DNA of 64,000 bases from Bacteroidales bacterium (GTDB lineage: Bacteria > Bacteroidota > Bacteroidia > Bacteroidales > UBA4417): NCBI GenBank assembly GCA_016707785.1, contig JADJGZ010000011.1, positions 75,859-139,858 of the forward strand, read 5' to 3'. The position numbers and the translations under genes are program-made. The notes under the pieces were generated by a model. The model was given only the letters and a program-made list of their open reading frames with translations, had not been told where the DNA came from and ran no database searches. Below, piece after piece: positions 31,675 to 63,936 of this stretch. Within the stretch, counting starts at the first letter, position 1, and each line of letters opens with the position of its first letter.

Positions 31675-31682
31675 CCACGAGA

Positions 31683-31731: not shown

Positions 31732-31737
31732 AAAAAT

Positions 31738-31777
31738 GCAAAGTGTAAAGTTTACATGCTTTATACTTTGCATTTTT
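31738..31777 (+). terminator. Rho-independent terminator after tRNA-Leu
   Basis: 13-bp stem gcaaagtgtaaag / ctttatactttgc (one mismatch), loop tttacatg, then a T5 run. Confidence 0.65.
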
Positions 31778-31941
31778 AATTAGAACATGCCACTCTATTT
31801 CTGTGTATTATCCGGCTATACTCAATAGAATGAATTCTATTATTAAAGAAATTGCATAATATTATAATGACTGCCTGAGTTGTATCGGACTCCTTAGTCA
31901 TTGAATAGACTTACCTTTGTGATGTTACAAAGAAATATCTG

Positions 31942-33246: not shown

Positions 33247-33437
33247 CTGTTGTGTTGTTTGCAAACTTATTTTTAATGTCGGAATCCAAATTGAATCCAC
33301 ACACTAAATAGTTTGATATTCCCTTGCTCCTATCAGAATTAAAACATCACAAGATGCAGAGTGGATAATCCTGTTGGGCCAATATTTCCTCAGAAAAATT
33401 TAGAATATTACAATACTTTTGTACAAAAGCGAGTGAC

Positions 33438-34025: not shown

Positions 34026-34204
34026 GATTGCTATTTCATTATGAGGTTATGAGTGCTAAGTCATAAGTACATCTGCATGTAAAATCCAAAATATCATCGA
34101 GGCACAGAGTATTATAAATTCTCAATTCATTAATCCAGTCATTTTTATTTTTTTTAATAAAAATGCAGGAGTATGATGTGGAAAATGATTTTTAAATCGT
34201 CGTT

Positions 34205-35263: not shown

Positions 35264-35480
35264 TTTCCAGAGTTATATACCTCCAACCATGTTCAGAAAA
35301 GATAATCGTCCGGTAGAATAGAGTAATATTTTCGGGAATTATCTGCCTCATACCTGGTTTCCTTCATCCACTCGCATCTGCTTCACTTTTCTTAAGTGTA
35401 AGCTAGAAATTCTCAATAACTGGAAATCCCGGTCAATATTGGTCTTTTCATAATTTATCATACCCTAAAACAAACAGAAT

Positions 35481-38846: not shown

Positions 38847-38940
38847 TAAAACATGATTCATTATGCTTTTCCATCCGTGAAAAGCAGAATATCATGACAC
38901 TAAAATTTTGAGAACGAACTTTTTAATGAGATTAACCCCT

Positions 38941-40464: not shown

Positions 40465-40616
40465 CCTTGCGTATCTTTAGGTAAGATGCTTTGAATAATG
40501 TATTTCGAAAGACAAAACTCATTCATGCTAACAAAGCGCATTTTACCATACAGATATTTGAACCAATATTAACAAGCAAACCCTTAATTCATTAACCTTA
40601 AAAAACCAATCAAATT

Positions 40617-43385: not shown

Positions 43386-43410
43386 TTGAGGTGTAGTAAT
43401 TATTTATCTA

Positions 43411-43445
43411 AGAGGATGTTTCAGTAATTGAAGCATCCTCTTTTA
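43411..43445 (+). terminator. Rho-independent terminator
   Basis: agaggatgtttc-agtaatt-gaagcatcctct followed by TTTT. Confidence 0.65.
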
Positions 43446-43496
43446 ATAGCATTTCAAGGTTAACTTACTTGTATATCTCTTAGTCTGATTGACAGC

Positions 43497-46004: not shown

Positions 46005-46196
46005 ATTTGTTACTACTAAACCTGGGAGGATTTTAAATAATTAATCGTACTTCCTGATTGTCAAACATTTCTCCGTGGTTATCTTGTATAAATTCACGAG
46101 GCTGTTGTAGATACTGGCAGTGCAAAAAATCAAAGAAGCTCATCCCTCAACACTATTTAAATTAATTACAGGTCTAAAAATTCAATCCCTACTCCA

Positions 46197-46961
46197 ATGA
46201 AACATACCAAAAATGCATTAATCATCGTATTCCTGTTCATCGGCTTAAGCCTGTTTTCACAATCAAAAGAGGGCTATTCGCTGGTGTGGGAGGACAACTT
46301 TAATGGGACTTCCCTTGATACCAGTGCCTGGAGTCATGAAACAGCAGAACCAGGTTGGGTAAATAACGAGTTACAACGATATACAACTGGCAACATTGAG
46401 TTTGCTGAAGGTAACCTGGTAATAATTTCAAAAAAAGAGAATGGGGAATATACCTCCGCTCGTCTGATTACAAAAGGGAAACGAACCTTTACCTACGGAT
46501 TATTTGAAATAAAAGCCAAAATACCCGAAGGTACTGGGACCTGGCCTGCATTGTGGATGCTTGGACAAAATATTGACCAGGTAGGATGGCCTGCCTGTGG
46601 TGAATTGGACATCATGGAACACGTGGGGAAACATCCAAATTTCATTCATTCTACGGTTCATAATCCATCAGGTTATGGTGCCACACCTTATACCGGAATC
46701 ATAGAAATTAACGACCCGTTTAACACCTACCATATTTACAGTATGGAATGGACTAAAGAATATGTGGATTTCTATACCGATGGAAAGTTGGTTTATCATT
46801 ATCAGCCGGAAGTGAAAAATGCTGAAAACTGGCCATTCGACAAGCCTTGCTACTTTATTTTCAATATTGCAATCGGAGGAAATTGGGGAGGCCCGGTGGT
46901 TGATGATACGCTCTTCCCTGCTACAATGACTGTAGATTGGATTAAAGCTTATCAGAAGTAG
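46197..46961 (+). CDS. Glycoside hydrolase family 16 (laminarinase/beta-glucanase type)
   Basis: Signal peptide, WPALWMLG, and the catalytic GELDIMEH (ExDxxE). Confidence 0.85.
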   Translation: MKHTKNALIIVFLFIGLSLFSQSKEGYSLVWEDNFNGTSLDTSAWSHETAEPGWVNNELQRYTTGNIEFAEGNLVIISKKENGEYTSARLITKGKRTFTYGLFEIKAKIPEGTGTWPALWMLGQNIDQVGWPACGELDIMEHVGKHPNFIHSTVHNPSGYGATPYTGIIEINDPFNTYHIYSMEWTKEYVDFYTDGKLVYHYQPEVKNAENWPFDKPCYFIFNIAIGGNWGGPVVDDTLFPATMTVDWIKAYQK

Positions 46962-46962
46962 A

Positions 46963-47202
46963 ATGTCTGATGTCGGATGTCTGATGTCGGATGTCTGATG
47001 TCTAATGTCTAATGTCGGATGCCCCGAAAGGAGCCTTTGGCTTCGGATGTTGGATTGCGGATTGCGGATTGCGGATTGCGGATTGCGGATTGCGGATTGC
47101 GGATTGGAGATTGGGAATTGTAGATGGTGGATGGGACTTGGTCCGCCGGCTGGCGGATGGGACTTGGTCCGCCAGCTGGCGGATGAGACTTGAGACTTGG
47201 GC
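46963..47202. repeat. Mosaic micro-repeat element: 25 heptads in one continuous register (ATGTCKG x8, a 28-nt hairpin unit, ATTGCGG x7, degenerate heptads), then 2 copies of a 26-nt double-hairpin unit
   Basis: Starts 2 nt after the GH16 stop. The register was counted by hand from 46963 to 47137. The units gggacttggtccgccRgctggcggat occur twice (47131..47185). Confidence 0.85.
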
Positions 47203-47457
47203 TTATATTTTTCTTGTAGTCCACTAATTTCCAAGATTCCGTGAGTTAACGAACGAAAGTATTAGTGCTGCATTCGTGCATTCGTGGCATTATATTTCGC
47301 CAGTAGCATTAACTTCCATCAGAATGTAAATACTTCAGGCAAAAAATCAGAACACAAATAGCTTAAATTATTCACAAATTGACACAAATAATTGAATCTT
47401 GCTTGCAGGTCATTTGCATTTATTTGTGTGGCATTTGTGTGATCTTCCCCCTTCAGG

Positions 47458-47574
47458 TACTCAGAGCCACAGGCTCCCCATCGGGGCACTCAGAGCCACA
47501 GGCTCCCCTTCGGGGCACTCGGCACTCAGCACTCAGCACTCAGCACTCAGCACTCAGCACTCAGCACTTAGCAC
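47458..47574. repeat. Two ~29-nt double-hairpin units followed by a (CAGCACT)n array with 6 perfect copies
   Basis: cagagccacaggctccccatcggggcact, cagagccacaggctccccttcggggcact, then cggcact, (cagcact)x6, tagcaca. Ends 33 nt before the next ATG. Confidence 0.85.
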
Positions 47575-47606
47575 AAATCATTAACGCAACACATTAACAA
47601 CGCAAT

Positions 47607-48710
47607 ATGAACGAACCTTCAGCCCGCTCCCCCCGCATTGCATCTATTGATGCCCTGAGAGGATTTGATATGCTGTTCATCATCTTTCTGGATCACTTTT
47701 TCAGCGCACTGAACGTAGGTGTAGGCTCACCTTTTACACAATCACTGGCTAAACAATTTGATCACCCTGAATGGTTCGGTTCTACAATTTATGATATTGT
47801 AATGCCTTTATTCCTGTTTATCGTCGGGGCAGCAATCCCTTTTTCCTTATCCAGACAAAAACAACAGGACTCAGGATTGTCAGCAATATACTTAAAGCTA
47901 ATTCGACGTTTTGTGATCCTTTTTATCCTGGGCTGGATTGTTCAAGGTCATTTACTTGAATTCAATATCGAAACTTTCAGCATTTTCAGCAATACCCTGC
48001 AAGCTATTGCAGTCGGATATCTATTTTCTGCCATTGCGTTTATTCATTTCAGCAGAAAGGTGCGGCTATGGATTTTTGCTTCTTCTCTCATTGTATATAT
48101 TCTGCTTTTAACCATTCCTTATGTGCCGGGTGCTGGCAGAGGTGTATTATTACCGGGAAGCAGCTTTGCCTGGTATGTCGATCAAATTGTTTTTGGACAA
48201 TTCCAGGATGGCACTCAATATACCTGGTTAATAAGTGGACTTGGTTTTATCGCCACCACGCTGACAGGCGTTTTTGCCGGAGAATTGATCAAATCAGACC
48301 TGCCCAGAAAAAAAGTAGCCTTATATCTGTTAATCTGCGGAATAGCAGGAGTACTGCTGGGATTGTTATTAGGAATCTGGCATCCGATCATTAAGAAACT
48401 TTGGACCAGCTCTTTCGTGCTGGCATCCTCTGGTGTTTGTTTTCTGCTGCTAAGTTTCTTCTACTGGATCATCGATGTCAAAGGAAAAGTAAAATGGGCC
48501 TTCCCACTCAGGGTGATCGGAATGAATGCTATAGTAGCTTATGTACTTTCACATGTTTTCAACTTTCACCTGATTGCTGAACAGGTTTTATATGGGTTAA
48601 AGCAATTTGTTGGCAATTTCAATTACCTCTTACTGACTATTGGCGGATTTGGCATTTTGTACCTGATTCTATGGTACATGCACAAAAACAAGACTTTTAT
48701 AAAAGTATAA
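47607..48710 (+). CDS. DUF5009/heparan-alpha-glucosaminide N-acetyltransferase-like polytopic membrane acyltransferase
   Basis: 367 aa. RIASIDALRGFDMLFIIFL... N-terminal signature, and about 10 TM helices. Confidence 0.7.
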   Translation: MNEPSARSPRIASIDALRGFDMLFIIFLDHFFSALNVGVGSPFTQSLAKQFDHPEWFGSTIYDIVMPLFLFIVGAAIPFSLSRQKQQDSGLSAIYLKLIRRFVILFILGWIVQGHLLEFNIETFSIFSNTLQAIAVGYLFSAIAFIHFSRKVRLWIFASSLIVYILLLTIPYVPGAGRGVLLPGSSFAWYVDQIVFGQFQDGTQYTWLISGLGFIATTLTGVFAGELIKSDLPRKKVALYLLICGIAGVLLGLLLGIWHPIIKKLWTSSFVLASSGVCFLLLSFFYWIIDVKGKVKWAFPLRVIGMNAIVAYVLSHVFNFHLIAEQVLYGLKQFVGNFNYLLLTIGGFGILYLILWYMHKNKTFIKV

Positions 48711-48827
48711 AATCAGTCTTAGCCTGATTCATCCCAAACTAGACCTGATCATGCTAAAATTATCCAATAGATGCGTAAGTATTCATCCCAACAGAATTAC
48801 AATCAACAATTTAAAATTTTAGTAACG

Positions 48828-49687
48828 ATGAAGAATTTGCTGCTTTCGTGTTTGACTTTCTTGCTTTTAACGAGCAGTATTGTTGCGCAGGAAGAAATTA
48901 AGCTCTACCCTAATGGCCCGGCAGAAGAAAGTGGAATAACCGCAAAAGAAACACAATACGGTACCTCCTGGGTAGTAGATGTCACTGAAGCAAGGATGTT
49001 TGCCTATATTGTCCCTAAAGAAAAAGCAAATGGAACAGCAGTTCTGATCTGCCCGGGAGGAGGATATGGAGGGCTTGCAATGGAACATGAAGGGACCATG
49101 GTTGCTCAATGGCTGAATTCTATAGGCATTTCCGCATTTGTACTATACTACCGTATGCCGAACCATCATCCGGAAATCCCTTTGAAAGATGCTCAGACTG
49201 CTATTGAACTCATCCGGAAAAACTCGAAAAAATGGAATATCGACAGGCACAAAGTTGGGATAGCAGGTTTTTCGGCCGGTGGACACCTGGCTTCAACTGT
49301 TGGAACTCAAAATAAGAGAAAAAACCGTCCGGATTTTATGATCCTGGTTTACCCTGTAATCACTATGACCAGAGGTGATGGAACTTGCGAAAACCTGCTT
49401 GGAAAAGATCCCTCAGACCCGCTGATTAATCGATTTTCAACTGACCTTCATGTAACTGAAAAGACGCCGCCAACTTTCTTAGTTGCAGCTGTGGATGATG
49501 ATGTAGTTTCGATTGAACATAGTTATAAATTCTACAAAGCTTTACAAGCCAGGAAAGTGCTATCTGAGATACATGCTTATAAAACCGGGGGCATAGTTTT
49601 GGAATGAAAAAAAAAGGTTTGGAGGTCGACAACTGGCCGGAACTTCTCTATAAATGGTTGCAATTATATTCAAAAGGTAAAGATTAA
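48828..49687 (+). pseudogene. Alpha/beta-hydrolase esterase (GFSAGGH nucleophile elbow), apparently frameshifted before the catalytic His
   Basis: The ORF ends at 49607 as ...HAYKTGGIVLE*. One nt further on, the next frame reads GHSFGMKKKGLEVDNWPELLYKWLQLYSKGKD* to 49687. This restores the expected GGH(G/S)FG catalytic-His motif. The shift sits at a ccggggg run near 49585. Confidence 0.65.
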
Positions 49688-49800
49688 AACATGCCTTTTC
49701 ACCCCTGATTTCTAATCTTATTAACCTACTTCGGACGAATTAAAATCAGTGCATGTATTAATTGGGTATATTCGTACTCTATTTCTTTGGTGGAAAAATT

Positions 49801-51177
49801 ATGTTCGTAGCAGAAGTTGTTTACAACCTTTTAGGGTTGCTGGCACTTAGTGTGCTCTCTGGATTCATATCATCAAGGTATGATAAGAAAAAACTTGTCG
49901 GCAAAATATTGCAGGGAATTATCTTCGGTTTTATCGCCGTTGCTGGCATGATGTTTCCATATGTCCTTAAAGCCGGATTAATTTTTGACGGAAGGTCAAT
50001 TGTAATCAGTCTGTGTACGCTCTTTTTCGGTCCATTACCTGGGTTTATTTCTACCTTCCTTGCATTAGGTTACCGAATTTACATCGGAGGTGCCGGTATT
50101 TTGATGGGGAGTAGTGTAATCGTAAGTTCATTTTTGATAGGATACCTGTTTTACTATTTAAGAAAAAACATGAGATTCAGGGTAACGACCCTGAATATCT
50201 ATTTTTTCGGCTTATTTGTTCATCTGGCAATGATGTTTTCTATGTTTTTACTCCCTCTGTCATTCAGAAGAGAAACTTTCAACTTGTTGACCTTTTCAAT
50301 TATGGGCATTTACCCATTTATTACTTTACTAATTGGAAAAATTCTTTTTGATCAGGAACAAAAACAGGTGGTTTTTACCCTGATCAAAAATAAAGAAGCC
50401 TCAATGCGTGCAACATTATATAGTATTGCTGATGCTGTCATCACAACGGATACTTTCGGAAGCATAATGCAGATGAATAAAGAAGCTGAAGAATTGACCG
50501 GTTGGAAGGAAGAAGAAGCCCAGGGAAAAGATCTGGATGATGTGTATCAAATTTATAATGAAGACACCGGAGACAGGCTTGAATCACCGAAATCGCGAAT
50601 TCAGACAAAAATTCCATCCATTTGGCAAAATGGACATTCATATTTAAAATCCAGAAATACAATTTTTAAACCAATAGCTGAAAGTATTTCTCCTATAATT
50701 GATGACTCAGGTGAAATTGTGGGGATGGTTATTGTATTCAGAGATCAGTCACTTGAACGAAAAAAAATCCAGGAATTGGAAGAGAGCAATCTTTTATTCT
50801 CAACCACTTTCCATTTTAGTCCGGTTCCAATGCTGCTGGTAGCAGTCGATGACGGAGTATTCCATGATGTAAACACGATGTTTTTGGATGAAACCGGGTA
50901 TACACGTGATGAGGTTATTGGACAAAACTCTGTCCAGCTCAACCTATACTTCGACCTTAATGATCGTATAAACATGATCGACAAGATAAGATCTGAAGGA
51001 AAAGCATATGGTTTACCCTTTATCTTGAGAATAAAAGATGGCTCATTAAAACACTGCCTCCTTTCTTCTAACATTATCAAGATTAATGGTCGTGAATTCT
51101 ACCTTACGACTATGTTAAACATAAGTCAGAAAAAAAGAGATGACCAAATCAGGCATATGCATTCAATCTTGCAATGA
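49801..51177 (+). CDS. Sensor module: 5TM LytS-type membrane domain + two PAS domains, with no kinase core
   Basis: Hydrophobic N-terminal ~200 aa, then PAS-like segments (ATLYSIADAVITTD...GWKEEEAQGKDL; FHFSPVPMLLVAV...TGYTRDEVIGQNS). Ends at a TGA that is in frame with the next ORF. Confidence 0.7.
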   Translation: MFVAEVVYNLLGLLALSVLSGFISSRYDKKKLVGKILQGIIFGFIAVAGMMFPYVLKAGLIFDGRSIVISLCTLFFGPLPGFISTFLALGYRIYIGGAGILMGSSVIVSSFLIGYLFYYLRKNMRFRVTTLNIYFFGLFVHLAMMFSMFLLPLSFRRETFNLLTFSIMGIYPFITLLIGKILFDQEQKQVVFTLIKNKEASMRATLYSIADAVITTDTFGSIMQMNKEAEELTGWKEEEAQGKDLDDVYQIYNEDTGDRLESPKSRIQTKIPSIWQNGHSYLKSRNTIFKPIAESISPIIDDSGEIVGMVIVFRDQSLERKKIQELEESNLLFSTTFHFSPVPMLLVAVDDGVFHDVNTMFLDETGYTRDEVIGQNSVQLNLYFDLNDRINMIDKIRSEGKAYGLPFILRIKDGSLKHCLLSSNIIKINGREFYLTTMLNISQKKRDDQIRHMHSILQ

Positions 51178-52998
51178 ATGATTTCATCTGCATCTATGGC
51201 TGATTTCTTTAAAGTTATGAAAAATGAATTGGGAGTATTGGTAGATACAACCAACTTCATATTCGCTTTATATGAAGAAAAGAATGATATGCTTACTGCC
51301 CCTTTTATGGAGGATGAGAAAGATGAAATTGCCCCAACCTGGTCGGCAGCAAGGTCCTTAACTGGCTATGTAGTGAAGCAGGGCAAAACTGTGCTGTTGA
51401 ATAAAGCTGAAATCTCTAAACTTGCAGCAGAAAGTATTATTGACATTATTGGAACCCCTGCAGAATGCTGGCTTGGGGTACCCCTGATCAGCAGTAAAAA
51501 AGTGCTTGGTGTGATTGTCATTCAGAGCTATTCCGATCAAAATGCATTCACTCAGCTCGGAATTGAAATTTTGGAAACCGTTGCAAAGCAATTCACCGTT
51601 TACATCGAGAAAAAACAGATAGAAGAAGAATCTCTCATACTTTCCAAAGCTGTAGTTCAAAGCCCGGTAACAATTGTTATTACAGATCTAAACGGATCAA
51701 TTGAATATGTGAATCCAAAATTTACAGAGCTAACCGGTTATACTCTTAAGGAAGCATTTGGCAAGAATCCGAGGATATTAAAATCCGGAGAACAGTCCTC
51801 AGATTTCTATAAAGAATTATGGGATACGATATCTTCAGGAAAAGAATGGCATGGAGAATTCCACAATAAGAAAAAGGATGGTGAGCTATTTTGGGAATCT
51901 GCAATCATAGCACCTATTATCGATTCCAATAATAAAATTACACATTATGTAGCTCTTAAAGAAGATGTTACCGAAAAGAAAAGATTACTTCTTGAGCTTA
52001 TTTCTGCAAAAGACAGGGCAGAGCATGCAGATAAACTGAAGACATCCTTCTTGCAGAATATGTCACATGAAATCCGCACCCCTTTAAACGGGATTCTCGG
52101 TTTTGCACATTTACTTAACAGGGAAAATATTACTACCGAAAATATCCGTCAATATGCACATGTGATTCAAACCAGTGGAAACAGGTTATTGGAACTTATA
52201 AATAATCTAATTGATATCTCCAAAATTGAATCAGGAACTTTAGAAGTCACCATGAAGGAATTTGAACTCAATAATTTAATTTATAGTGTTTCAGATCAAT
52301 TTAAACCTTTGTCGGCTTCAAAAGGAGTAATGCTGAAAGTTGCATTAGAACCAAGGTCTAAAGAGATCAATATTATTTCTGATGAATTAAAAATACATCA
52401 AATTTTAACCAACTTGATAAACAACGCATTCAAGTTTACAAAAGAAGGAAGCGTTGAAGTTGGATATTCACTGGTTGTGGATAAGATTTCATTTTATGTG
52501 AAAGACACAGGCCCAGGGATTTCTGAAGAAAATCAAACGAAAATATTTGAAAGATTCTTCCAGATAGATTCCTCCATGACCAGGGGATATGAAGGTTCAG
52601 GCCTGGGATTATCTATCTGTAAAGGCCTCGTCGAAATGCTCAAAGGAGAGATATGGGTGGAATCAGTCCTTAACCAGGGGACAATATTTCATTTCACAAT
52701 TCCTTTAATTGAAGGGAAACCTTTGGTAATTAGCGAAGCAAGCCCGGAAGTAAAACCGGTATTCAAATATAAAAGCATATTAATTGCTGAAGATGATGAA
52801 TATAGTTTCCTCTATTTACAGGAAATCTTCAACAACTTTAATGTTCTGATTACACGGGCAACTAACGGCCAGGATGCAGTCGATACATGTAAATCCAGAA
52901 AGGATATTGACCTGGTTATGATGGATATCAAGCAAAAATGGCGCATCGCCTCTGCCTCATCGCTCACTGCATCCACCAGAAACAAGCGCTGGAAGTAG
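51178..52998 (+). CDS. GAF-PAS-HisKA-HATPase_c hybrid histidine kinase with degraded C-terminal receiver
   Basis: H-box SHEIRTPLNGILGF, N-box LINNAFKFT, DTGPGI, GSGLGLSI. The receiver starts ILIAEDDEYS...DLVMMDIK and then loses similarity. No TM segment and no N-terminal sensor of its own. Confidence 0.8.
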   Translation: MISSASMADFFKVMKNELGVLVDTTNFIFALYEEKNDMLTAPFMEDEKDEIAPTWSAARSLTGYVVKQGKTVLLNKAEISKLAAESIIDIIGTPAECWLGVPLISSKKVLGVIVIQSYSDQNAFTQLGIEILETVAKQFTVYIEKKQIEEESLILSKAVVQSPVTIVITDLNGSIEYVNPKFTELTGYTLKEAFGKNPRILKSGEQSSDFYKELWDTISSGKEWHGEFHNKKKDGELFWESAIIAPIIDSNNKITHYVALKEDVTEKKRLLLELISAKDRAEHADKLKTSFLQNMSHEIRTPLNGILGFAHLLNRENITTENIRQYAHVIQTSGNRLLELINNLIDISKIESGTLEVTMKEFELNNLIYSVSDQFKPLSASKGVMLKVALEPRSKEINIISDELKIHQILTNLINNAFKFTKEGSVEVGYSLVVDKISFYVKDTGPGISEENQTKIFERFFQIDSSMTRGYEGSGLGLSICKGLVEMLKGEIWVESVLNQGTIFHFTIPLIEGKPLVISEASPEVKPVFKYKSILIAEDDEYSFLYLQEIFNNFNVLITRATNGQDAVDTCKSRKDIDLVMMDIKQKWRIASASSLTASTRNKRWK

Positions 52999-53322
52999 GG
53001 ACTACCTGAGTAAACCTTCGGACCTGCTTGATCCTAAACAAGTTGTTTAGGTTATTCTGGACGCATTTAATATATTTTATTGAAAATGAACACCTTTGCT
53101 TGAAATCCTTATTTGATAAGGCTACTGGGAATTAAAAAAAAACGATCACACTATGTAAATATTGACATATCTGTATAATTTGATAGAATAAAGATTCACC
53201 GAAAGTAAACTGAAGTGCAGAAATGAGCGCACTAAGCAAATTGCAGGAAACTGCAATTCATGTTTTGAAGGAATTAGAAAATGGAAAGGAACTTAAGCTC
53301 AAATAAGATGAGGATAAATCCA

Positions 53323-54078
53323 TCATTTTACTACAATGGCATCCTCAATCAATATCTTATAAAAATAACCAGAACCAAAGTCCTTATTCAACCTGACAAT
53401 TCCGGAGAAAACTACTGTACTGCCAATTGTCACACTGTCCTGGGTAGAAAGGGCAAGATCAAAATTCCCGGCAAATTCGCTCCCATCTTGAATGTGCACC
53501 CAGTTTTTACCCATTATTTGAGAACTGAAATGGGTTACCTGACCTTTGACCTTGATACTTTTCCCGGCATACCTGGGATGGAATTCGTATAATTCCGCAA
53601 TACTAACACCACCTTTTACCTTTTCAACCTGGATATCAGTCCTTCGGGTCTCTGGTTGTTTCCGAGGCGGAGTTGCCCCCTGTGGCATAGCGTTATCAGA
53701 CATAGATCCCGGTTGGGGCTTCCCAAGCATATCAGGGCTTTCACTTACCTGCTGGACAAAATAAACCTTGTCAAATGTTTTCCCCAACTCTTTACTTGCA
53801 AAATTCTTCATTTCCAAAGCATTGGAAAAATAGAGTGTGACTCCTTCAGAAATATCCTGTCTGGAAATAGCAATCCAATACTCCGACTTCCCCTCTTCAA
53901 CAAGCAGGTAAGTATACTTAGTAGTTTGTGTAACACTTTGTACTTCAACCTGATGGATTCCTTCAGCAAGAGGATCAGAAACAGTTAATTTTTTCCCTGT
54001 ATTCCAAAAAGGAATAGTAATCAGGAATATACCCGCCAGGATAAGAATGGCAAAAATTATATTTTTTTTATTTTTCAT
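53323..54078 (-). CDS. N-terminally anchored protein of unknown function, two beta-rich (OB-like?) halves joined by a Pro/Gln linker
   Basis: 251 aa. MKNKKNIIFAILILAGIFLITIPF anchor. Last gene of the cytochrome cluster, 10 nt after the barrel gene. Confidence 0.6.
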   Translation of the reverse strand: MKNKKNIIFAILILAGIFLITIPFWNTGKKLTVSDPLAEGIHQVEVQSVTQTTKYTYLLVEEGKSEYWIAISRQDISEGVTLYFSNALEMKNFASKELGKTFDKVYFVQQVSESPDMLGKPQPGSMSDNAMPQGATPPRKQPETRRTDIQVEKVKGGVSIAELYEFHPRYAGKSIKVKGQVTHFSSQIMGKNWVHIQDGSEFAGNFDLALSTQDSVTIGSTVVFSGIVRLNKDFGSGYFYKILIEDAIVVK

Positions 54079-54088
54079 CGATTCTGGT

Positions 54089-55705
54089 TTAAAAGCGCTG
54101 AGTCAGACTGAGATAAACCCTCTCATAATTCCTGCTTTTTTCAAATGTACCTTCAACGTTAACAGAGAAATTGAGTTTTTTCATCATCCTCCAGGTAAGA
54201 TTTAACTCAGCCATATTTTGAACCAAAGGTGTTTCAGCACTAAGGAACTTGTATTTTACCCATCGGTAATTCACGCCTCCATAAAGTTTACCTGGCAATA
54301 AATCTCTCGACAATCCGGCACTATAGATACTGCTTGAAAGATAACCTGTTTCAAGAAATGTCGCCGAAATTGTTGCGGCAGCTTTCAGCCAGGGCACATT
54401 ATTATAAGTTGCATAACCATACACATTTTTTGAGGGGTTTGGATCCTGTTTATTGGTCCTGTACCCTGCATTCACTCCAAAAGTCAGGTTCTTGAGAGGA
54501 CGATAATTGATTTGAGCCATATACCCCTGTGTACTTGCTTCTTCGAGTAATCTATCAATAATATCCTTATAGGTTTCATAATAGATGATGTTCTTCCTTG
54601 AACTATAGGAGAGTGACATTGAAACCTGTTTTGAAAACTTATAACGGGCCGTGAAGTACATATTTGATAACTTCAGTTTCTGATCAGCGGAATAGGAACT
54701 GTCCTGAGTATTCCTGGATTTGTTGAACAGGTCAGCTTCCAATGACCCGAAGAGAAAAAGTCCGGGTATAAGGTTGTTCGTGTGTTGAAAATAGGCAAAC
54801 CTTCGGTCAGTTAAACCTTTATTTTTCTGCTCAACAAGGGCAATTGAATTTTGCATGGTCTTATCACCAGAATGATAATCATGTGCCAGGTATCCGCCCA
54901 TTTGCAGTAAAGAGGGATTAAAACTGTAATTTATATAGTCTGGTCTTGATCCTCCTACCAACCCTGCACTGAATGATTTTAACTTTAACTCAACCTGGGC
55001 CCCATCGATAGCGCCAGCATTCGACAACCTGGCATTAATTTTACGTCCTACCCAAACTTTTACTTTCTTATTAAACTCGTAACTCAGTGCCAGGTTATAA
55101 ATCTTCAGTCCGTTGAAAACATCATTCTTTATCTCACCCCATTCATTTAATCGGTGCACAAAACTGATGTAGGTCTCGCCTGAAAGATTGGAACCACCAA
55201 TATTAACAGCATTCATGGAAAAATTATACCGCATTCGCTGTGAAAAGTCAGAAACATTGGAGAAATTGGAATAGGATGCCAATGCAATTCGTCCGCTTAT
55301 GCGCTGTGTGGGTTCAGTATTGATACTATCCTTTGCAGGAGTATTTGTTGTTTTGGCTACCGGTGTTGCAGGAGGTACGATGTTCTCTATTTTATTAACA
55401 GGGATATTATCACGTGTCACTTTCCCGGAAACCTTATCCCCGACAGAATATTTGTCACTTCCAACAGGAACACAAACACAGGAAATAGAGGATAACTCAC
55501 TAACAATCAATGCCGGAATAAAATTATTTGCTTTGATCCTGTAAAGGGTATCACCTGCTTTAATTCCATCGGTAGTTTCGAATTTTACATATATGTTCTG
55601 AGAAGTAGTATATGATATAACACCTTCAACAAAAGAAGACAACTCCTGGCCTGAAATGTTATTTCCAAGTATAAGTACAATAATTATAAGCAGTAATTTC
55701 TTCAT
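54089..55705 (-). CDS. Putative outer-membrane beta-barrel protein (porin-like partner of the multiheme cytochrome)
   Basis: 538 aa. Signal peptide MKKLLLIIIVLILGNNISGQ, a ~130-aa N-terminal soluble domain, then alternating-hydrophobic strands rich in Y/N/G/S, and a terminal ...LSLTQRF (C-terminal Phe). Starts 10 nt after the cytochrome frame ends. Confidence 0.6.
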   Translation of the reverse strand: MKKLLLIIIVLILGNNISGQELSSFVEGVISYTTSQNIYVKFETTDGIKAGDTLYRIKANNFIPALIVSELSSISCVCVPVGSDKYSVGDKVSGKVTRDNIPVNKIENIVPPATPVAKTTNTPAKDSINTEPTQRISGRIALASYSNFSNVSDFSQRMRYNFSMNAVNIGGSNLSGETYISFVHRLNEWGEIKNDVFNGLKIYNLALSYEFNKKVKVWVGRKINARLSNAGAIDGAQVELKLKSFSAGLVGGSRPDYINYSFNPSLLQMGGYLAHDYHSGDKTMQNSIALVEQKNKGLTDRRFAYFQHTNNLIPGLFLFGSLEADLFNKSRNTQDSSYSADQKLKLSNMYFTARYKFSKQVSMSLSYSSRKNIIYYETYKDIIDRLLEEASTQGYMAQINYRPLKNLTFGVNAGYRTNKQDPNPSKNVYGYATYNNVPWLKAAATISATFLETGYLSSSIYSAGLSRDLLPGKLYGGVNYRWVKYKFLSAETPLVQNMAELNLTWRMMKKLNFSVNVEGTFEKSRNYERVYLSLTQRF

Positions 55706-55715
55706 CTACTGATTA

Positions 55716-58700
55716 CTAGTTACTTCTAATGAAATTTCTGATCATTTGATCATTGCCATTTGGATGGCAATTCAAACAAGCAGCACTGTTGTATGAATAC
55801 CCGCTTACTCCCTGGTGGTCATTATTGGTTGAACTCTGAGGATGGCAGGAAGTGGTGCAAGTAAATACAGAGTAATTGGTTGAGTTGGGATGGCAATCAG
55901 AACAAGTGTTCCATTCTCCATTGTGATTTCCGGAATAGATAGGGAAATATTGGTCGTCGTGGTCAAAGGTAGATGGCTGCCATGCTGTTTGAGTGTGGCA
56001 ATCCTCACAGGTAGTTGGGAATTGAGCCGAAACATGGTTAGGGTCATTGGTCTGGTTGTATTCGTTAATATGACAACCGGAACAGGTGTTAGGAGTGTTT
56101 GTATAATTACCGTTATGGCAATCAGAACACTGATTCGCAATAGCAAGATGGGCACCCTTGAGTACATAATAGTTATTATGGATGGGGAAGGTGGCTGGAG
56201 CCCAGCCGGGGTTAGTGGTATGGCAGGTTGCACATTCATTGGGAATGGCCAATGAAACATGGTTAGGATTTGTCGCCTGGTTATAATTGTTCTGGTGACA
56301 TCCTTCGCAGGTATTCGGAGTATTACTGTAACCGTTGGCGTGACACTGCACACAATTGGTTGCAATGGTTGCATGTGCCCCGGTTAATGGATAGGTGGAA
56401 TTATGGTCAAAGGTTGAAGGAACCCATGCAGTCTGTGTATGGCAATCCTGGCAGGTTGTGGCAAATTGGGAAGCCACATGGTTAGGATTGGTTGTCTGGT
56501 TATAATTGTCAATATGACAACCGTCGCAGGTATTGGGAGTAGTGTTATAATTACCATTATGACAGGTGGCGCACTGATCTGCCAGAGGAATATGAGCCCC
56601 TTCCAGCACATAGTAATTATTATGAATTGGGAAACTGGCAGGCGCCCAACCTGGATTTGTCGTGTGACAGCTCGCACATTCATTGGGAATTGCCAGGGAT
56701 ACATGGTTGGGATTAGTAGCCTGCGTATAATTGTTCTGATGGCAACCCTCACAGGTGTTGGGGGTATTGTTATAGCCGTTGGAATGGCACTGCACACAAT
56801 TTGATGCGATCGTAGCATGCGCACCGGTCAAAGGATAGGTATTGTCATGATCGAACGTTGAAGGCACCCAGGCAGTCTGGGTATGGCAATCCTGGCAGGT
56901 GGTGGCAAATTGAGAAGTTACAGTTGCTGGGGGTGTGAAGCTACATGGTTCGGATTTGTGGTCTGGTTATAATTGTCAATATGGCATCCATCACAGGTAT
57001 TGGGGGTAGAATTATAATTCCCATTATGACAATCTGCACATTGTGAAGCTATGGCAACATGAGCACCTTGAAGTGCATAATAGTTGTTATGCACGCTGAA
57101 AGTAGCGGGAGCCCAACCCGGAGCGGTAGTATGACAGCTTGCACAGTCATTTGAGAGACTAAGTGAGGTATGGCTGGGGTTTGCTGACTGATTGTAGTCG
57201 TTGATATGGCAACTGGAACATTCGCTGGATGTACCTGCATATCCATTCGATGGCAGCTGGCACAATCAGTACCGGCATGACCTCCTGTTAAATGGAATGG
57301 AGAAGTATTGTGGTTGAAACTACCGGCTGAGTTCCCATCAGGATGGCAGGCAAGACAAGCTTCAGTTGTGTAAACATACCCCCCTACTCCCTGGTGTTCA
57401 TTGTTAGTGGAATTCTGCTGGTGACAGGAAGATGTACAGGTTACTACTTTATAATTACCTGGATTGGTATGACAGTCGGAACATTGATCCCATTCTCCCT
57501 GGTTTTGTCCTGAATAAATAGGGAAAATATTGTCCGTCATGGTTAAATGTTGCGGGTGTCCAGGATGCTTGCGAATGGCAATCAGCACAGGTAGTCGGGA
57601 ATTGAGCAGTAGAATGTGACGGATCATTCGTCTGGTTGTATTCATCAATATGACATCCTGAGCAGGTATTTGGAGTGTTGGTGTAGCTCCCCTGGTGACA
57701 GGAGGCACAATCATTTCCAATTCCAGCATGTGCACCTTCAAGTACATAATAATTACTATGTGTCGGGAAAGTAGCCGGCGACCAACCCGGACCCGTAGTA
57801 TGACATACCGCACAATCATTGGAGATTCCTATTCCGGTATGGTTAGGGTTGGTGGTCTGATTATAATTATTGGTATGACAACTGGCGCAAACTGTAGAAG
57901 TATTAGTATATTTGTTTGCATGACAGCTATTGCAATCGTCAACAGCATGCCCTCCGGTTAATGGAAATGCTGAAGTATTGTGGTCGAAACTGCCCTGTGA
58001 ATTACCTGCGGGATGGCATTCGAAACAGGCTATACTATTATACGCATATCCTCCAACCCCCTGGTGCTCGTCATCCATATCGGGTTGGTTGTGATCATGA
58101 CAATCAATGCAACTGAATACTTTAAAATTCCCTGGATTGGTATGGCATTCAGAGCAATCATTCCATTCACCCTGGTGACTTCCTGAATAAATAGGAAAAT
58201 ACTGTCCATCGTGATTGAAAGTTGAGGGCGTCCAGGCATTCACATTATGACAATCCTCACAGGTTGTCGGAAACTGGGCTGCAGCATGTGAAGGGTCGTT
58301 TGACTCATTATAATCAGCTGCATGGCATCCAAAACAAGTATTTGGTGTATTGGTATAATTCCCTTTATGACAGGAAAAACAATCATTCGCAATTGACTGA
58401 TGAGCTCCCAATAACGGATAAACTGTATTATGATTAGGAAAGATGCTGGTTTCCAATCAGGAAGAGTTGTAGGGCAGGTTCCACAATCATTTCCAATGCC
58501 GGATGCAATATGATTTGGATTGGTTGTTTGATTATAGGCATTGGTATGACAACTGGAGCAGGTGGTTGGTGTCCCAGCATACTGGAGGTATGACAACTTG
58601 AACAGTTAGTGGTTGTATGGGCTCCCGTTAATGGAAAGCTGGTAGAATTATGGTCAAAAGCGCCATCTCCTGAACCATTTGGATGACAGCCAAAACAAGC

Positions 58701-61309
58701 GATACTATTATAAGTGTAACCGCTAACTCCTTCATGTTCATCATCTGTATCCCCCTGGTTATGCTCATGGCAATTGGTGCAGGTAAATTGAGCATAATTG
58801 GAAGGATTTGTATGACAGTCGGAACAATTATCCCATTCTCCTTTATGAGTTCCTGAATAAATAGGGAAAGACTGGGAATCATGATCTTTATATTCTGCCG
58901 GACTCCATCCCGGATTAAGATTGTGACATTGCTTGCAATCGGTTGAAAATTGTAATGTAATGTGGTTAGGACTTGCTGCAGTATTATAATCCTGCTGATG
59001 ACAGGAAACACAAGCAGCATCAATGCTGGAATATGATCCTGAGGTATGACAGGTTTTACAGTCACTGATTTCATGGCCGCCCGTAAGTGGGAAGAAATTG
59101 TGATTGATACCGGCTCGGACCATTCGAAAGAGTTTTATATTATGACATTCTTCGCAATTTGTTGAATAACCGGCTGGGTGTGATTAGGGTTCGTTGTAGA
59201 CAGGTAGTTATCTTTATGACAATCAAAACATTCAACTCCCAGGGGATCAAAACGTAATGCAGAAGCTGTTCCTAAGCCATTCGCAGCCGGTGAAAGATTA
59301 ATATGACAATCGGAACAATTCGCCTGGGTATGAGGCCCGATTAAAGGGAAACGGCTCATTTGATGCAATTGGGTAGTATTGGTAACCACCCAGGAATTAG
59401 GCGTATGACATCGGGAGCAATCAGTCCCCACAGTTTGCTCATGAATATCGATATGACATTCATTGCAATCAGTGGGAGTCTTTACAAATTCAAGGGAGGT
59501 ATGGCAATCCTTGCAGGAAACAGATTGGTGCTGCCCTACCAATGGGAATTTCGTAACACTATGATCAAAGGCTAATTTGGCAAGGTCAATCTTCCAGCCA
59601 TCCGTAGTATGGCAATCCTTGCAACTGATGGCAAAACCAGTCCCATGGGGAGATTTCTGGGCAAAATACTCCCGAAAATGATCAGTGTGAAAGGATTATT
59701 GATGACAGTCTTCGCATTTGATTTTCTTTGTTTTATAAAGGATGAAAGTTGCTTCACCAATGGTGACAGGTTGGTGGCATTTTTCACAAGGGAGGCCTGA
59801 ATGTTTGCCATCCAATGGAAATTGTGATTTGTTGTGATCAAAAGAAGCTGTTGGTTTGAAAGCTATTGAATTATGGCATTTTTTACAATCTGTCTTTCCA
59901 TTCTCGTCAAACTGCTGCCGATGAATGTCGGTATGACAGTCACTACAATTCATGGATAAATCCTTAAAAGTCTGGTTGGCATGACCCTTCACTTCCTTGT
60001 TAAAATGGCAGTCTCTGCATGTTTTGGTTTCATGTGCACCTTCAAGAATAAACTGTGTGATTTTATGATCAAATTCAACCTGATTCCAACGGCTATTCGA
60101 ATGACAGTTTTCACAATTTTCTTCAGGATAGTATTTCTCTGATATCTTGCCTGTATGAATGTTCTCATGACAGTCTTTACAATTCTTCCCGATCTCTTTA
60201 AATTTCCATTTAGTCTCTTTCTTATGGCATGAAATACAAGGTGTTGCCAGATGTGCACCTTTCAATGGAAATCCTGATGAATTATGTTTCTCAATGGTAA
60301 AAGAAGAGCCTTTGAATCCTTGCACCGAATGGCATTCAGAACAATCAGGTGAAACACCGTTCTTAACAAATTGCTTTTCGTGATAATCCGTATGACAATC
60401 AGTGCAGTGCTTATGCAGCAATGGTGTAGTAAGTTTTATCTTGTGGCACGACTTACAACTCTACTGCCTGGTGCTTGCCTTCTAATTTGAAATCTGTTTT
60501 ACTATGATCAAAATTCTTTACCCACCAACGGCTGTAAAAGACTCAGTATTATGGCATTCAGAACATTTCTGCCCAAATTTGTTATTATGAGCATCTTCAT
60601 GACAATTCGTGCAATTGGCATATTTAACTCCCTTGAATTCCTGGAATTTTACTCCATTTCTCATGGATGTTTTATGACACTCAGCACAGGCAACATCCTG
60701 ATGCCTACCAGTTAGTTTGAAGCCGGATTTCTGATGACTAAATTTAGTGGCAGGCTTGAACTTTTCATTGTCATGACAATCGGCACAACTGCTGGAAAGA
60801 GATTTCTGATGATAATCGGTATGACATGATAAGCAATCTGTCCCCATCCCGAGAAAGGTGTATTTTTTTGCCTTTATCTTGGCATCCTTTATATACTGGG
60901 GTTTATGACAATCCTCACATTTCTTTTTATTGTGGGCTCCAAGGAGTTTATAGCCGGTAAGGGCATGATTGAACTTGGTTTTATCGAAGCGGATGATTTG
61001 AAAATTAACTCCGTGATGGTCACTATGGCAGGATGCACATTGTTTCCCTTTCACCTCAGCGGATGAGTGATATCCCTTATTACTGCTGATCCTGGTCTTC
61101 AGTTCAGTATGGCAGGCCAGACACTTATCATTCGAGACTTTTTCACCCAGGATGTGACATTTGGTGCAATTTGACATTCCCTCCAGATGTGAATGCACCT
61201 TGGCAAGATCTCCCGGAGATATCTGTGATTTAACCTCAACCAAAAAGCAAAGTTGAAACAGGAATAATCCTGTCAGAAGTACTTTAAAGAGGTTAGTAGG
61301 ATAAATCAT
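55716..61309 (-). pseudogene. Giant multiheme c-type cytochrome (~1860 codons, ~69 CXXCH + 2 CXXXCH) split into at least 9 frame segments
   Basis: ORF-track pieces 60518..61309, 59696..60421, 59135..59542, 58434..59123, 58240..58596, 57455..58456, 57049..57819, 56918..57265 and 55716..56867 are collinear. They continue each other's repeat pattern but sit in different frames. Only the first piece has a signal peptide (MIYPTNLFKVLLTGLFLFQLCFLVEVKSQ). Confidence 0.8.
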
Positions 61310-61335
61310 TTCTTCAATTAATTGGACAGTTTCTG

Positions 61336-62670
61336 TTAAGTGTGTTTCAAAATGGCTTCACCAAACTTTTGGTAATCATAATTCCAGCCTTTGTAAAAAC
61401 TGGATAGGTAATTCACCCCGGCAAAAATATATACGAATTGATTGACAATATGTATCTCCTTGTCCTCCTTCAAATCCTTTAGCAACACAGATTCCTTTAG
61501 TATTTCAACCGGTGAGGTATTAAAGAGTACCCTTACTTTGCCAGAAGATGAAGCCATACCAATTCTTTCGCTATTCATGGGTTTCAAACGGCTAAACGTA
61601 TCACCCCTGTATGATAAGGTTACATTATTATGGTCACAAAGAAGCAACGCTGATTCAATAGCAGAATCACCGCCTCCCACTACCATAATATCTTTACCAC
61701 TGATATCTTCGGGCTCTAATAATCTGTAGGCTACCTTTTCCAGCATTTCACCCGGAACCCCTAGCTTTCGTGGAGTACCTCTCCGGCCAATGGCGATTAA
61801 AACCGTTTTGGTTGAAAGTTTTTCGCCTGCCTGTGTTTCAACCAGAAAATGGTTATTCTCCTTATGAATGGCTTCCACTTTAGTATTTTCCCGGATAGTA
61901 AGCTGATTTTTCCCTAATGCGTTTTGCCATAAATCCAGGAGTTCGGTTTTACTGGTTTCAAATAGTTTGACCTTTCCAAAAAGTGGTAAGTCCATGGCTG
62001 AGGTCATTACAATTTTTTGCCTGGGAAAGGTATAAACTGTCCCTCCAAGTGTGTCCTGTTCCAGGGTCAGAAACTTTAAGTTGTGCTTTTTAGCTGTCAG
62101 GGAAGCTGAAATACCAGCCGGGCCTGCCCCGATTATAATCAAATCATAGGTAGCATCATGACTTCCCCTGAGTGTTCTGACCAGGTTGTCGACCGCCTGT
62201 TTGCCTTGTTCTACAGCATTCTTTATGAGTCCCATCCCTCCCAATTCACCGGCAATATAAATTCCATTGACATTGGTTTCAAAATTCTGATTGACATGGG
62301 GTAAATCAACACCCCGCGTTTCTGTACCAATAACTAACATGATGGCTTGTGTAGGACAGGCATGAAAGCATGCACCATGACCAATACATCTCGATGCATT
62401 AATCGTAGTGGCTTTCCCGTCTTTTATGCCAATAATGTCTTTTTCAGGACATGCAGCAACACAGGCACCGGTTTTGATACAGCTATTTGCATCAATAACC
62501 GGGTGCAGAGAGATAGGCTCAAATAATCCATCCTGTTTGGCCTTGATAATCTTCTCTTCTACTTTTTTAGATTCTCTTTTCTGCTTGCGCAGATAAATGA
62601 AAACCACGATCAGGCAGAATAATACTGCAACTGAATAAATTGCGACCTGTTCTATGAGTATTTCCATCAC
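61336..62670 (-). CDS. Membrane-anchored ferredoxin-domain + FAD/NAD(P)-binding oxidoreductase
   Basis: 444 aa. N-terminal TM helix, two Cys-rich motifs CIKTGACVAACP and CIGHGACFHACP, and dinucleotide folds DLIIIGAGPAGISA and DIMVVGGGDSAIESA. Confidence 0.8.
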   Translation of the reverse strand: MMEILIEQVAIYSVAVLFCLIVVFIYLRKQKRESKKVEEKIIKAKQDGLFEPISLHPVIDANSCIKTGACVAACPEKDIIGIKDGKATTINASRCIGHGACFHACPTQAIMLVIGTETRGVDLPHVNQNFETNVNGIYIAGELGGMGLIKNAVEQGKQAVDNLVRTLRGSHDATYDLIIIGAGPAGISASLTAKKHNLKFLTLEQDTLGGTVYTFPRQKIVMTSAMDLPLFGKVKLFETSKTELLDLWQNALGKNQLTIRENTKVEAIHKENNHFLVETQAGEKLSTKTVLIAIGRRGTPRKLGVPGEMLEKVAYRLLEPEDISGKDIMVVGGGDSAIESALLLCDHNNVTLSYRGDTFSRLKPMNSERIGMASSSGKVRVLFNTSPVEILKESVLLKDLKEDKEIHIVNQFVYIFAGVNYLSSFYKGWNYDYQKFGEAILKHT

Positions 62671-63535
62671 TCAGAATATCCATCTGTAACCAAAAACGAT
62701 AGTGACTCCGACATGAATCACCATAATCACCAGCATTACAAGAGCAAAAGGTAAATGTGCTACATGCCAGTATTTAAATAGGTTCTGCATGGTAACCAGG
62801 CGCTCTATGCGTCGGTTCAGGGAGATTTCATTGTTTACCAACCTGATTACTTGTTTACGTTCTGCTTTGGGTATCTTATTGCTTCTCAGCACATTTTTAC
62901 ACTACGTAGCGCTTTCTTATCCTGTATGTAACGTTTCAATGTACGTGAAAACACATTGCCCTGAAAACGACTGATCTTTGAACGGGTAGAGGCGACAATC
63001 AATTCAAAACTGCCTTCATCCAGCTGTACCGATTGATTTAAGGCTGCTCCAATATCCCCTTTCATATCTCTTATTTCATTCAGACTCAATTCCCGGCCTT
63101 CTATGCTCCTGGGAATTTGAATGTAAATAAATCTTCCGATGATTCCACTAAGAAAACAGCTACCATACTCCAGAAACTGATGGCAACAATACCACCGAAT
63201 TTGAAGGAGGTATGGAATAAAACCAGGATTGGACCTAATGTACATAAAAGATGTGAAATTCAAGCCAATGCTTCAAAAGGCCTAACCTTGAAAATATCCT
63301 GTACCTTTTTCGGGCCATATACAGAATGACTCAAAAATCATGAATAAAGAACCAATGATCCCGATTCCATGACCAAGAATGCCACTGGGTTTGAGTATGG
63401 AATGATCCGGATGGAAAGCTCTCTCTTCCATGCTGGTAATATAGTAAGCGTATCCCTTCATGAAAAGGGCAACCAGGCAACGATCACAATTAATGAAAGA
63501 GTTACCAGGTAGATTCTGTGAGCTGTTTTAGTCAT
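62671..63535 (-). pseudogene. His-rich polytopic membrane protein (possible heme-b/quinone-side module), multiply frameshifted
   Basis: Track pieces 62671..62892 and 62886..63263 are in different frames. My translation upstream needs about 3 further shifts to read MTKTAHRIYLVTLSLIVIVAWLPF / FMKGYAYYITSMEERAFHPDHSILKPSGILGHGIGIIGSLFMIF / VILYMARKRYRIFSRLGLLKHWLEFHIF / LCTLGPILVLFHTSFKFGGIVAISFWSMVAVF / SGIIGRFIYIQIPRS... / LRSNKIPKAERK...LFKYWHVAHLPFALVMLVIMVIHVGVTIVFGYRWIF. Confidence 0.6.
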
Positions 63536-63592
63536 CCAAAGTAATTAATTGTGTATCAAATAGTTGCTTTGTTTCCATTTGATTGAGAAAAT

Positions 63593-63600
63593 CAAATTTA
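63593..63600 (-). promoter_or_regulatory. Candidate -7 promoter box (TAAATTTG on the minus strand) for the cytochrome cluster
   Basis: The plus strand reads caaattta. It lies ~58 nt upstream of the ATG at 63535. Confidence 0.3.
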
Positions 63601-63634
63601 ATATAAATAACCAAGAAACTATTGCATTTATTTT

Positions 63635-63655
63635 AATTTAGAATTATTCTAAATT
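63635..63655. promoter_or_regulatory. Perfect 10-1-10 palindrome AATTTAGAAT-T-ATTCTAAATT upstream of the cytochrome cluster
   Basis: Inverted repeat read directly. It lies ~35-55 nt upstream of the candidate -7 box, in an AT-rich non-coding region. Confidence 0.4.
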
Positions 63656-63936
63656 GTCATTTTGGACTCATTCGAGACTAAATATCCAGGCCGAATCAAT
63701 ATATGATAATCCAGGAAAAGTAATCTTTTGAAATGGACAGAAAATACTGAATAATAGCTTGCTAAGTTCAATTAGCAATTATCCAGTTTCTTACAAATAC
63801 ATCTAAGTCATTATTAATAATATATTAATATTTATTTATTTATATATGTTGATATTACTTGATTATTATTTTTCATTTCTTATACTTATACTAAAAATAG
63901 CCTCTTGTACTAATAATGTACGTATTTAATAATTTT

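Follow-up and report, generated by a model that had tools for sequence, protein, structure and literature searches.

The right-hand end of the window (the whole 64,000-nt stretch of DNA that was analysed) can be compared with three kinds of described system. With the indel errors of metagenome-assembled genomes (MAGs) built from Nanopore R9.4.1 reads it shares one-base changes that are moderately enriched in homopolymers, a dominance of deletions (in 56.9–63.5 kb), lesions private to one assembly, and assembly with CANU and medaka (r941) at about 15x; unlike in those cases, the sequence was polished with Illumina reads, contig interiors are clean, and the errors are found only in a terminal multi-haplotype stretch, where they are accompanied by multi-base garbling. 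As in unmerged strain bubbles or haplotigs, two contigs of the same bin overlap end to end at an identity of about 90%, near the CANU overlap error limit of 0.105, and similar duplicates between contigs make up 7% of the assembly; here, however, the copies differ by real divergence biased to third codon positions, and the alleles are mosaic across treatment plants. The pseudogene clusters of host-restricted bacterial pathogens likewise show multiple frameshifts in several adjacent genes, whereas common lesions, relaxed selection, nonsense substitutions and IS insertions are missing from the present locus, and its lesions enter unrelated flanking genes and track the distance to the contig end.

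The source is the activated-sludge MAG Damh_18-Q3-R51-60_MAXAC.084 (JADJGZ01; Lentimicrobiaceae, genus UBA4417), which was assembled with CANU (corMinCoverage=0, correctedErrorRate=0.105) from Nanopore R9.4.1 reads at about 15x coverage and polished with Racon, then medaka (r941), then Racon with Illumina reads (PMC8012365). Supplementary Data 3 of that study lists npcov 14.6 and ilmcov 15.4 for this MAG, and its polymorphic rate is 0.039 (3.9% of sites), compared with about 2% on average in the study (PMC8012365).

The window corresponds to positions 75859–139858 of contig C11 (141,289 nt) and ends 1431 nt short of the contig end; the first lesions lie 15.8 kb before that end. The last 9.9 kb of C11 overlap the end of a second contig of the same bin, C42 (from 51096 down to 41030), as a dovetail of about 90% identity. 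Over 8.4 kb of aligned tail the identity is 89.8% and 103 gaps are opened, fragmentation is greater in the C42 copy, and beyond the overlap C42 is clean (1 gap in 5.3 kb). With a probability of about 0.86 we regard the right-end lesions as errors of the consensus, made where a Nanopore metagenome contig runs out with poor support in a multi-strain locus. The original prediction, made without knowledge of the nearby contig end and of the second allele in the bin, had left the choice open between a local drop in quality and recent decay confined to this locus, hitting a respiratory module and a sensor kinase; contig position, private lesions, selection, the behaviour of other contig ends and provenance all speak strongly for the former, and the latter finds no such backing. 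Whereas contig geometry, private lesions, selection signature, genome-wide pattern and provenance are matters of observation, we infer that the errors arose directly from low depth and mixed haplotypes.

The features of the affected part are the following (window coordinates, strand):
48771..49690, +, alpha/beta-hydrolase (BD-FAE/Abhydrolase_3 esterase) gene, by Pfam match
49762..53064, +, hybrid sensor kinase (5TMR-LYT, PAS, GAF, PAS, HisKA, HATPase, REC), by Pfam matches
53323..55705, -, two genes intact by 5-way alignment and tblastn, for a 251-aa protein and a putative barrel protein of 538 aa
55548..64000, no strand, and on to the C11 end 1431 nt past the window, sequence found twice in the assembly (dovetail with the C42 end)
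55716..59726, -, large multiheme cytochrome of repetitive sequence, read-through length about 1335 aa, with 10 private indels
59696..61309, -, gene for a 537-aa multiheme cytochrome, in which two shifts (+1/-1 at 60461/60521) compensate each other
61336..62670, -, 4Fe-4S/FAD pyridine-nucleotide-disulfide oxidoreductase, by Pfam and 5-way alignment
62671..63544, -, membrane protein of about 290 aa with five private 1-nt deletions

The predicted confinement of frame breaks to the right-hand part is borne out by open reading frames and by a codon-usage Viterbi parse. No lesion was counted in the first 48.8 kb, where each long gene is a single ORF and the parse finds just two direct same-strand frame switches, both of them gene boundaries (PanB/RluA, and a REC protein next to a 710-aa protein, with Pfam matches covering the full models). 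Between 49.6 and 63.5 kb about 30 frame-disrupting indel events are present. The start of the predicted lesion zone (48,828–63,535) holds but its end does not, since at least 11 further lesions are found in the last 1.4 kb of C11, at a density of about 8 per kb, and they run on through the adjacent galactokinase gene as far as the contig goes. Lesion density thus rises toward the contig end, but the stretch from 53.1 to 56.9 kb is lesion-free and the drop in quality is therefore patchy rather than monotonic, a point against the artefact reading.

To tell which sequence had changed, lesions were compared with close alleles in other assemblies (L087, L088, L089 and L090); every lesion for which this could be decided occurs in this assembly alone. 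In the esterase, the single frameshift is a loss of one nucleotide in the G run at 49586–49588, which cuts off the GGH...C-terminus; the run is G5 in the window and G6 in L090, L088 has CCGGCGGGC, and the proteins of L090 and L088 are intact with 305 and 286 aa, respectively. The kinase is 96% identical to that of L090. Its apparent in-frame TGA, taken before as a lesion in its own right, results from a pair of deletions (-1 at 51160, -2 at 51174; net -3), while the scrambled 3′ end, the REC-encoding 52932–53064, looks like the sequence of the relative minus many small chunks; it adjoins a 3.4-kb structural difference. The kinase is missing from L088 and is also fragmented, at different sites, in L090, the sole other assembly that carries it, which could hint at real dispensability and counts against the artefact reading. 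A related-locus search with the kinase that covered genomes other than its own returned only relatives of at most 51% identity.

The large cytochrome carries nine 1-nt events (59691, 59662, 59174, 59133, 59115, 58584, 58433, 57521 and 57249) and a 23-nt insertion at 56914, thus ten indels where eight or nine frameshifts had been expected; a further apparent deletion at 57094 was rejected, since that gap comes from how the alignment places an extra base of L088. The predicted loss of a heme ligand is present in the assembled sequence, where the His codon CAT of a CxxCH motif reads CCT (58471–58473), a His-to-Pro change. The supposed in-frame TAA (59696–59698) is no lesion at all: it is the natural stop of the separate 537-aa cytochrome gene, and every relative has the same overlap with the next gene. 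None of the five available alleles has an unbroken large cytochrome, and the breaks lie at private sites that differ from allele to allele; in more distant relatives of the same genus it is a single ORF of 725–1188 aa. Neither the 251-aa gene nor that of the barrel protein contains a private indel in the 5-way alignment, and both give full-length tblastn matches to relatives, in agreement with their predicted intactness; an exact look-up of the barrel protein gave no match.

Three shifts had been suspected at the 3′ end of the oxidoreductase, and three 1-nt homopolymer deletions are indeed found there (T5 to T4, T4 to T3 and C5 to C4 at 61366, 61389 and 61415), which scramble about 17 codons before the frame is regained. 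The surrounding 115 nt show no substitution among the five alleles and are otherwise identical; a pattern scan of JGI metagenome contigs for this conserved 3′ end gave no match. In the membrane protein, the roughly five shifts anticipated correspond to 1-nt deletions at 62893, 63152, 63246, 63331 and 63475, and the protein is whole (292 codons) in L087, L088 and L089.

The original description of the lesions as single-nucleotide losses at homopolymers is correct as to losses (17 deletions to 3 insertions over 56.9–63.5 kb; insertions outnumber deletions in the last 1.4 kb of C11) and overstated as to homopolymers. Of 20 single-nucleotide events, nine fall in runs of at least 3 bases, where 20% would be expected (p=0.011), and 14 fall in runs of at least 2 (p=0.08), so that "nearly all" does not apply; six lie outside any run, and run lengths at the events range from 1 to 6 bases. 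This moderate enrichment counts against the artefact reading, as does the consideration that Illumina polishing should remove most homopolymer errors wherever short reads map uniquely.

In the 5-way alignment the window allele has 20–21 private indels, compared with 69 in C42, 61 in L089, 5 in L088 and 2 in L087; the two alleles with the most are both at contig ends. The substitutions between the C11 and C42 copies are biased to third codon positions, which indicates real allelic divergence and not one sequence assembled twice. The idea that the C42 copy is simply a chimera between L089 and the window allele was rejected: mosaic structure is common to all five alleles, also to those from other treatment plants, so that natural recombination explains the C42 copy better.

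The interval from the esterase to the 251-aa gene occurs in three real structural haplotypes, which implies a real deletion breakpoint at or near 52.93–53.07 kb. A mixed case, with most 1-nt indels being errors and a few lesions real strain-level changes, is nonetheless unlikely. Its candidates would be a truncation of the kinase receiver by a deletion that removed three L090 genes, the 23-nt insertion at 56914 and the His-to-Pro change; the latter two are unlike homopolymer-length errors and are a point against the artefact reading. A single deletion, however, would not leave the receiver remnant seen here, which has numerous micro-deletions and is nearly identical in the bases that are left; the last part of the 23-nt insert almost repeats the adjoining 8 nt in the spelling of another haplotype, as would be the case for a consensus stutter, and the His-to-Pro change stands beside 33 other private changes at codon positions 1 and 2 of the window allele, some of which may themselves be errors.

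The other contig ends of the assembly behave alike. Inter-contig duplicates of at least 84% identity amount to 370 kb (7% of the assembly), and 24 of the 58 segments touch contig ends. The median number of gap openings in these duplicates is 12.6 per kb where a partner lies at a contig end and 3.7 otherwise (p=3.5e-6), and the end copy of a pair usually has the shorter ORFs. All 11 SusC-family genes lie in contig interiors and are intact. ORF length and "non-coding fraction", which are crude measures, show a gradient toward contig ends; a hexamer-model Viterbi parser, too insensitive genome-wide and scoring Cys/His-rich cytochromes as non-coding, shows a weak one (2.15 versus 1.5 same-strand frame switches per 10 kb).

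The clustering of lesions in functionally linked genes, the differing gene content of the locus among strains and the fragmentation of the kinase and the large cytochrome in every close assembly might suggest that one coexisting strain recently lost the cytochrome conduit, the esterase and the sensor kinase by independent frameshifts. Such pseudogenisation is highly improbable. Comparison with the closest related genomes, named in the original prediction as a means of deciding, finds every lesion private and absent from the closest alleles: against four alleles of 90–94% identity, no frame-breaking lesion of the window is common to another allele, and the other assemblies are broken at different sites. 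Private substitutions of the window allele fall on codon positions 1, 2 and 3 in the ratio 14/19/102, with 5/8/46 in the "broken" cytochrome and 5/3/20 in the membrane protein; 76% of the substitutions on the window lineage are thus at third positions, which places the "broken" genes under purifying selection. The even spread over codon positions expected of relaxed selection in real decay is not seen, no stop codon occurs in the window allele when it is read in the frames of the relatives, and neither nonsense substitutions nor lesions common to relatives, as decay would leave, were found. About 30 indels without matching neutral or nonsense substitutions do not fit decay, nor do the continuation of the lesions through the galactokinase gene to the contig end and the same behaviour at other ends of the assembly. 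Programmed recoding or phase variation that switches the module on and off at short homopolymers has a negligible chance of being correct, for although several events lie in runs of 4–6 bases, the about 30 sites are spread over at least 6 genes and many lie in runs of 1–2 bases, no site is kept in the relatives, whose ORFs are uninterrupted, and compensated pairs tens of nucleotides apart are without precedent as switches.

Consensus error at a strain-polymorphic contig end could have come about as follows. The terminal ~16 kb would span a locus that is polymorphic in structure and alleles within the sampled population and carries a multiheme-cytochrome/barrel cluster together with a sensor kinase that is accessory. 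Three or more haplotypes of 90–93% mutual identity would co-occur in one metagenome and would have broken the assembly graph at this locus, C11 running into one haplotype and C42 into another, to leave the unmerged 9.9-kb dovetail. With few and mixed reads per branch, homopolymer-length errors and small compensated shifts would have stayed uncorrected, and the same low support may have left one 23-nt stutter and one collapsed stretch in the consensus. The cells themselves most likely carry intact copies of these genes.

Were some of the lesions real, they would show one of the coexisting UBA4417 strains of the Damhusåen plant in the course of losing its multiheme-cytochrome conduit and the adjacent sensor kinase, at a locus recombining between lineages, which we consider very unlikely. 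On the reading as consensus errors, the main value of the case is one of caution. The genome is a species representative, yet uncollapsed divergent duplicates with dense indel errors occupy the contig ends and about 7% of the sequence, and gene calls in these stretches are unreliable. Other frameshift-based findings near contig ends of this assembly are equally suspect, and the "decayed" electron-transfer module, the "split" kinase and the "lost" heme ligand are not to be taken as biology of this organism.

The window (C11:75859-139858) stops 1431 nt short of the end of contig C11, which at 141,289 nt is one of the 61 contigs of the 5.14-Mb assembly, so that the disrupted zone comprises the last ~16 kb of C11. 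The left part (0-48.8 kb) had been described as free of disruptions, and on this the ORF map and a codon-usage Viterbi parse concur; the parse contains just two direct same-strand frame switches there, both gene boundaries (PanB/RluA and a REC protein beside a 710-aa protein) with full-model Pfam matches. Right of 48.8 kb the genes found by Pfam, namely esterase, hybrid kinase, multiheme cytochromes and oxidoreductase, are fragmented as predicted. The galactokinase in the last 1.4 kb of C11, past the window, carries at least 11 further private indels, i.e. indels seen in one allele only.

Features of the right part of the window and their frame-disrupting events
Esterase: G run shortened by one base (G5; G6 in L090)
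Hybrid kinase (5TMR-LYT/PAS/GAF/HisKA/HATPase/REC): -1 at 51160 and -2 at 51174 relative to L090
53323-63544, conserved six-gene cluster, with the following members:
251-aa protein
538-aa putative barrel
Large repetitive cytochrome, ~1335 aa, several dozen CxxCH motifs: ten events, one of them a 23-nt insertion at 56914
537-aa cytochrome, about 20 hemes: compensated pair 60461/60521
FeS-flavoprotein (4Fe-4S/FAD oxidoreductase): events at 61366, 61389 and 61415 at the 3' end
Membrane protein: five events

Three further assemblies were reached via the 90% protein cluster of the oxidoreductase, namely GCA_963853285.1 (L087 and L090), JADJFO01 (L088, same species from another plant) and JADJHD01 (L089, MAXAC.107). 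Alignment of 53.3-63.95 kb with L087, L088, L089 and C42, a contig of the same bin with a second allele at its end, yields 21 private indels in the window, 69 in C42, 61 in L089, 5 in L088 and 2 in L087; the window event at 57094 proved to be an alignment side-effect, which leaves 20. The single esterase frameshift, the three hidden shifts suspected in the oxidoreductase and the about five in the membrane protein were all recovered. The in-frame TGA of the kinase is present as well, and arises from its -1 and -2 changes. The TAA at 59696-59698, taken for a cytochrome lesion, is instead the normal stop codon of the 537-aa gene, and two overlapping genes lie there in relatives; private deletions at 59691 and 59662 put the next gene in frame with it by chance. 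The heme ligand reported as lost is indeed a His-to-Pro change at a CxxCH motif (CCT vs. CAT in all four other alleles), and the association of indels with homopolymers is moderate rather than near-total. The kinase REC end (52932-53064) equals the relative's sequence minus many small chunks and adjoins a 3.4-kb structural difference.

Substitutions between window and C42 fall mostly on third codon positions (positions 1/2/3: oxidoreductase 1/6/43, cytochrome fragment 16/7/73), as do those private to the window (14/19/102 overall), including the broken cytochrome (5/8/46) and the broken membrane protein (5/3/20); the window allele lineage is under purifying selection. Beside about 30 frame-breaking indels there are neither matching neutral substitutions nor nonsense substitutions, and one 115-nt stretch is identical in the five alleles except for three homopolymer deletions. 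Private substitutions are flatter over codon positions in C42 (29/31/53) and L089 (64/59/86), which fits added substitution errors. The large cytochrome is interrupted in all five close alleles, at different private sites in each, and the number of breaks tracks nearness to the contig end. In same-genus genomes (about 68% DNA identity) the cluster consists of intact genes, in the order ~294-aa membrane protein, ~450-480-aa oxidoreductase, 537-aa cytochrome, 725-1188-aa cytochrome, ~550-aa barrel and ~250-aa protein.

From window position 55548 to its end C11 aligns to C42:51096-42824, continuing to 41030, with 89.8% identity, 667 mismatches and 103 gap openings over 8.4 kb. Both copies reach contig ends in dovetail orientation, and since L088 runs collinear first with the C11 tail and then with the remainder of C42, the two contigs are neighbours with unmerged ends. 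The C42 copy is broken into more pieces than that of the window; past the overlap C42 is clean (1 gap in 5.3 kb). L089, likewise error-rich and at a contig end, stems from the same metagenome, and therefore at least three haplotypes coexist in one sample.

The bin, Damh_18-Q3-R51-60_MAXAC.084 (JADJGZ000000000; Bacteroidales, Lentimicrobiaceae, g__UBA4417), has coverages of 15.4 (Illumina) and 14.6 (Nanopore), a strain heterogeneity of 33% and a polymorphic-site rate of 0.039 vs. a study mean of about 2%; it was assembled with CANU 1.8 (corMinCoverage=0, correctedErrorRate=0.105) and polished with Racon, twice with medaka (r941 model) and finally with Racon using Illumina reads (Singleton et al. 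2021, PMC8012365; the values for coverage, strain heterogeneity and polymorphic sites from Supplementary Data 3). The assembly graph would have split at this polymorphic, internally repetitive locus, each contig running on into one haplotype with small and mixed read support, and polishing may have been unable to repair the consensus. The dovetail may have stayed unmerged because the roughly 10% haplotype divergence sits near the CANU overlap limit.

The pattern extends across the assembly. Inter-contig duplicates at ≥84% identity cover 370 kb, 24 of 58 segments reaching contig ends, and median gap openings are 12.6/kb with a partner at a contig end vs. 3.7/kb otherwise (Mann-Whitney p=3.5e-6; rows not fully independent). 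Of the 27 rows in which exactly one partner is at an end, 16 show shorter ORFs in the copy at that end, for example 160 vs. 878 aa and 100 vs. 1871 aa; nine of the other 11 come from a single C22/C45 tandem-repeat pair that is matched repeatedly. All 11 SusC-family genes, each contig-interior, are full length. The small contigs C3, C54 and C59 as a whole and the ends of C58, C53, C4, C8, C29, C40 and C51 duplicate sequence found elsewhere in the assembly at 85-95% identity, with 10-33 gap openings/kb; redundant low-quality duplicate sequence amounts to about 7% of the assembly. The comparison assemblies carry errors of their own: in L088 a C run longer by one base breaks the DUF5009/NagX-like gene (matching window position 48502), and the L090 kinase (L090:4640-7120) lies in five pieces through about 20 private 1-2-nt deletions.

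The original prediction had left decay and artefact side by side; its observation of broken genes stands, and an assembly or consensus artefact is strongly favoured (probability roughly 0.86). A minority of the lesions could be real: the shortened REC end, which lies at a true structural breakpoint, the insertion of 23 nt, and the replacement of His by Pro.

Between esterase and 251-aa gene three structural haplotypes are found: esterase, kinase and three additional genes in L090 (4570-11130), esterase and kinase in the window (49660-53340), and the esterase only in L088 (19380-19480). In this species the sensor kinase belongs to the accessory genes. Intergenic heptamer/micro-repeat arrays upstream of the DUF5009 gene (47111-47200, 47544) also differ in copy number between window and L090, by 2-21 nt in length. 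The five alleles (55600-63900; L087, L088, L089; C42:42824-51096) are mosaics of one another, a pair being 0.4-2% apart in one 500-nt bin and 10-17% in the following one, across treatment plants and projects; such mosaic sequences suggest frequent homologous recombination at the surface-cytochrome locus. MAXAC.107 (L089, L091-L100), a sister-species MAG from the same metagenome, is 72-77% identical to the window at 28001-48000 vs. about 90% at 54700-63900, the cytochrome cluster, and the 33.7-kb contig of this MAG shares 93.6% identity with L087, a contig of another assembly. These identities suggest that either the cluster was transferred between species or the contig was placed in the wrong bin.

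No Pfam or NCBIfam family scores above threshold for the putative barrel, the membrane protein or the 251-aa protein. The broken genes at the right end of the window are most probably not a biological feature. The six-gene cluster resembles a porin-cytochrome electron conduit.
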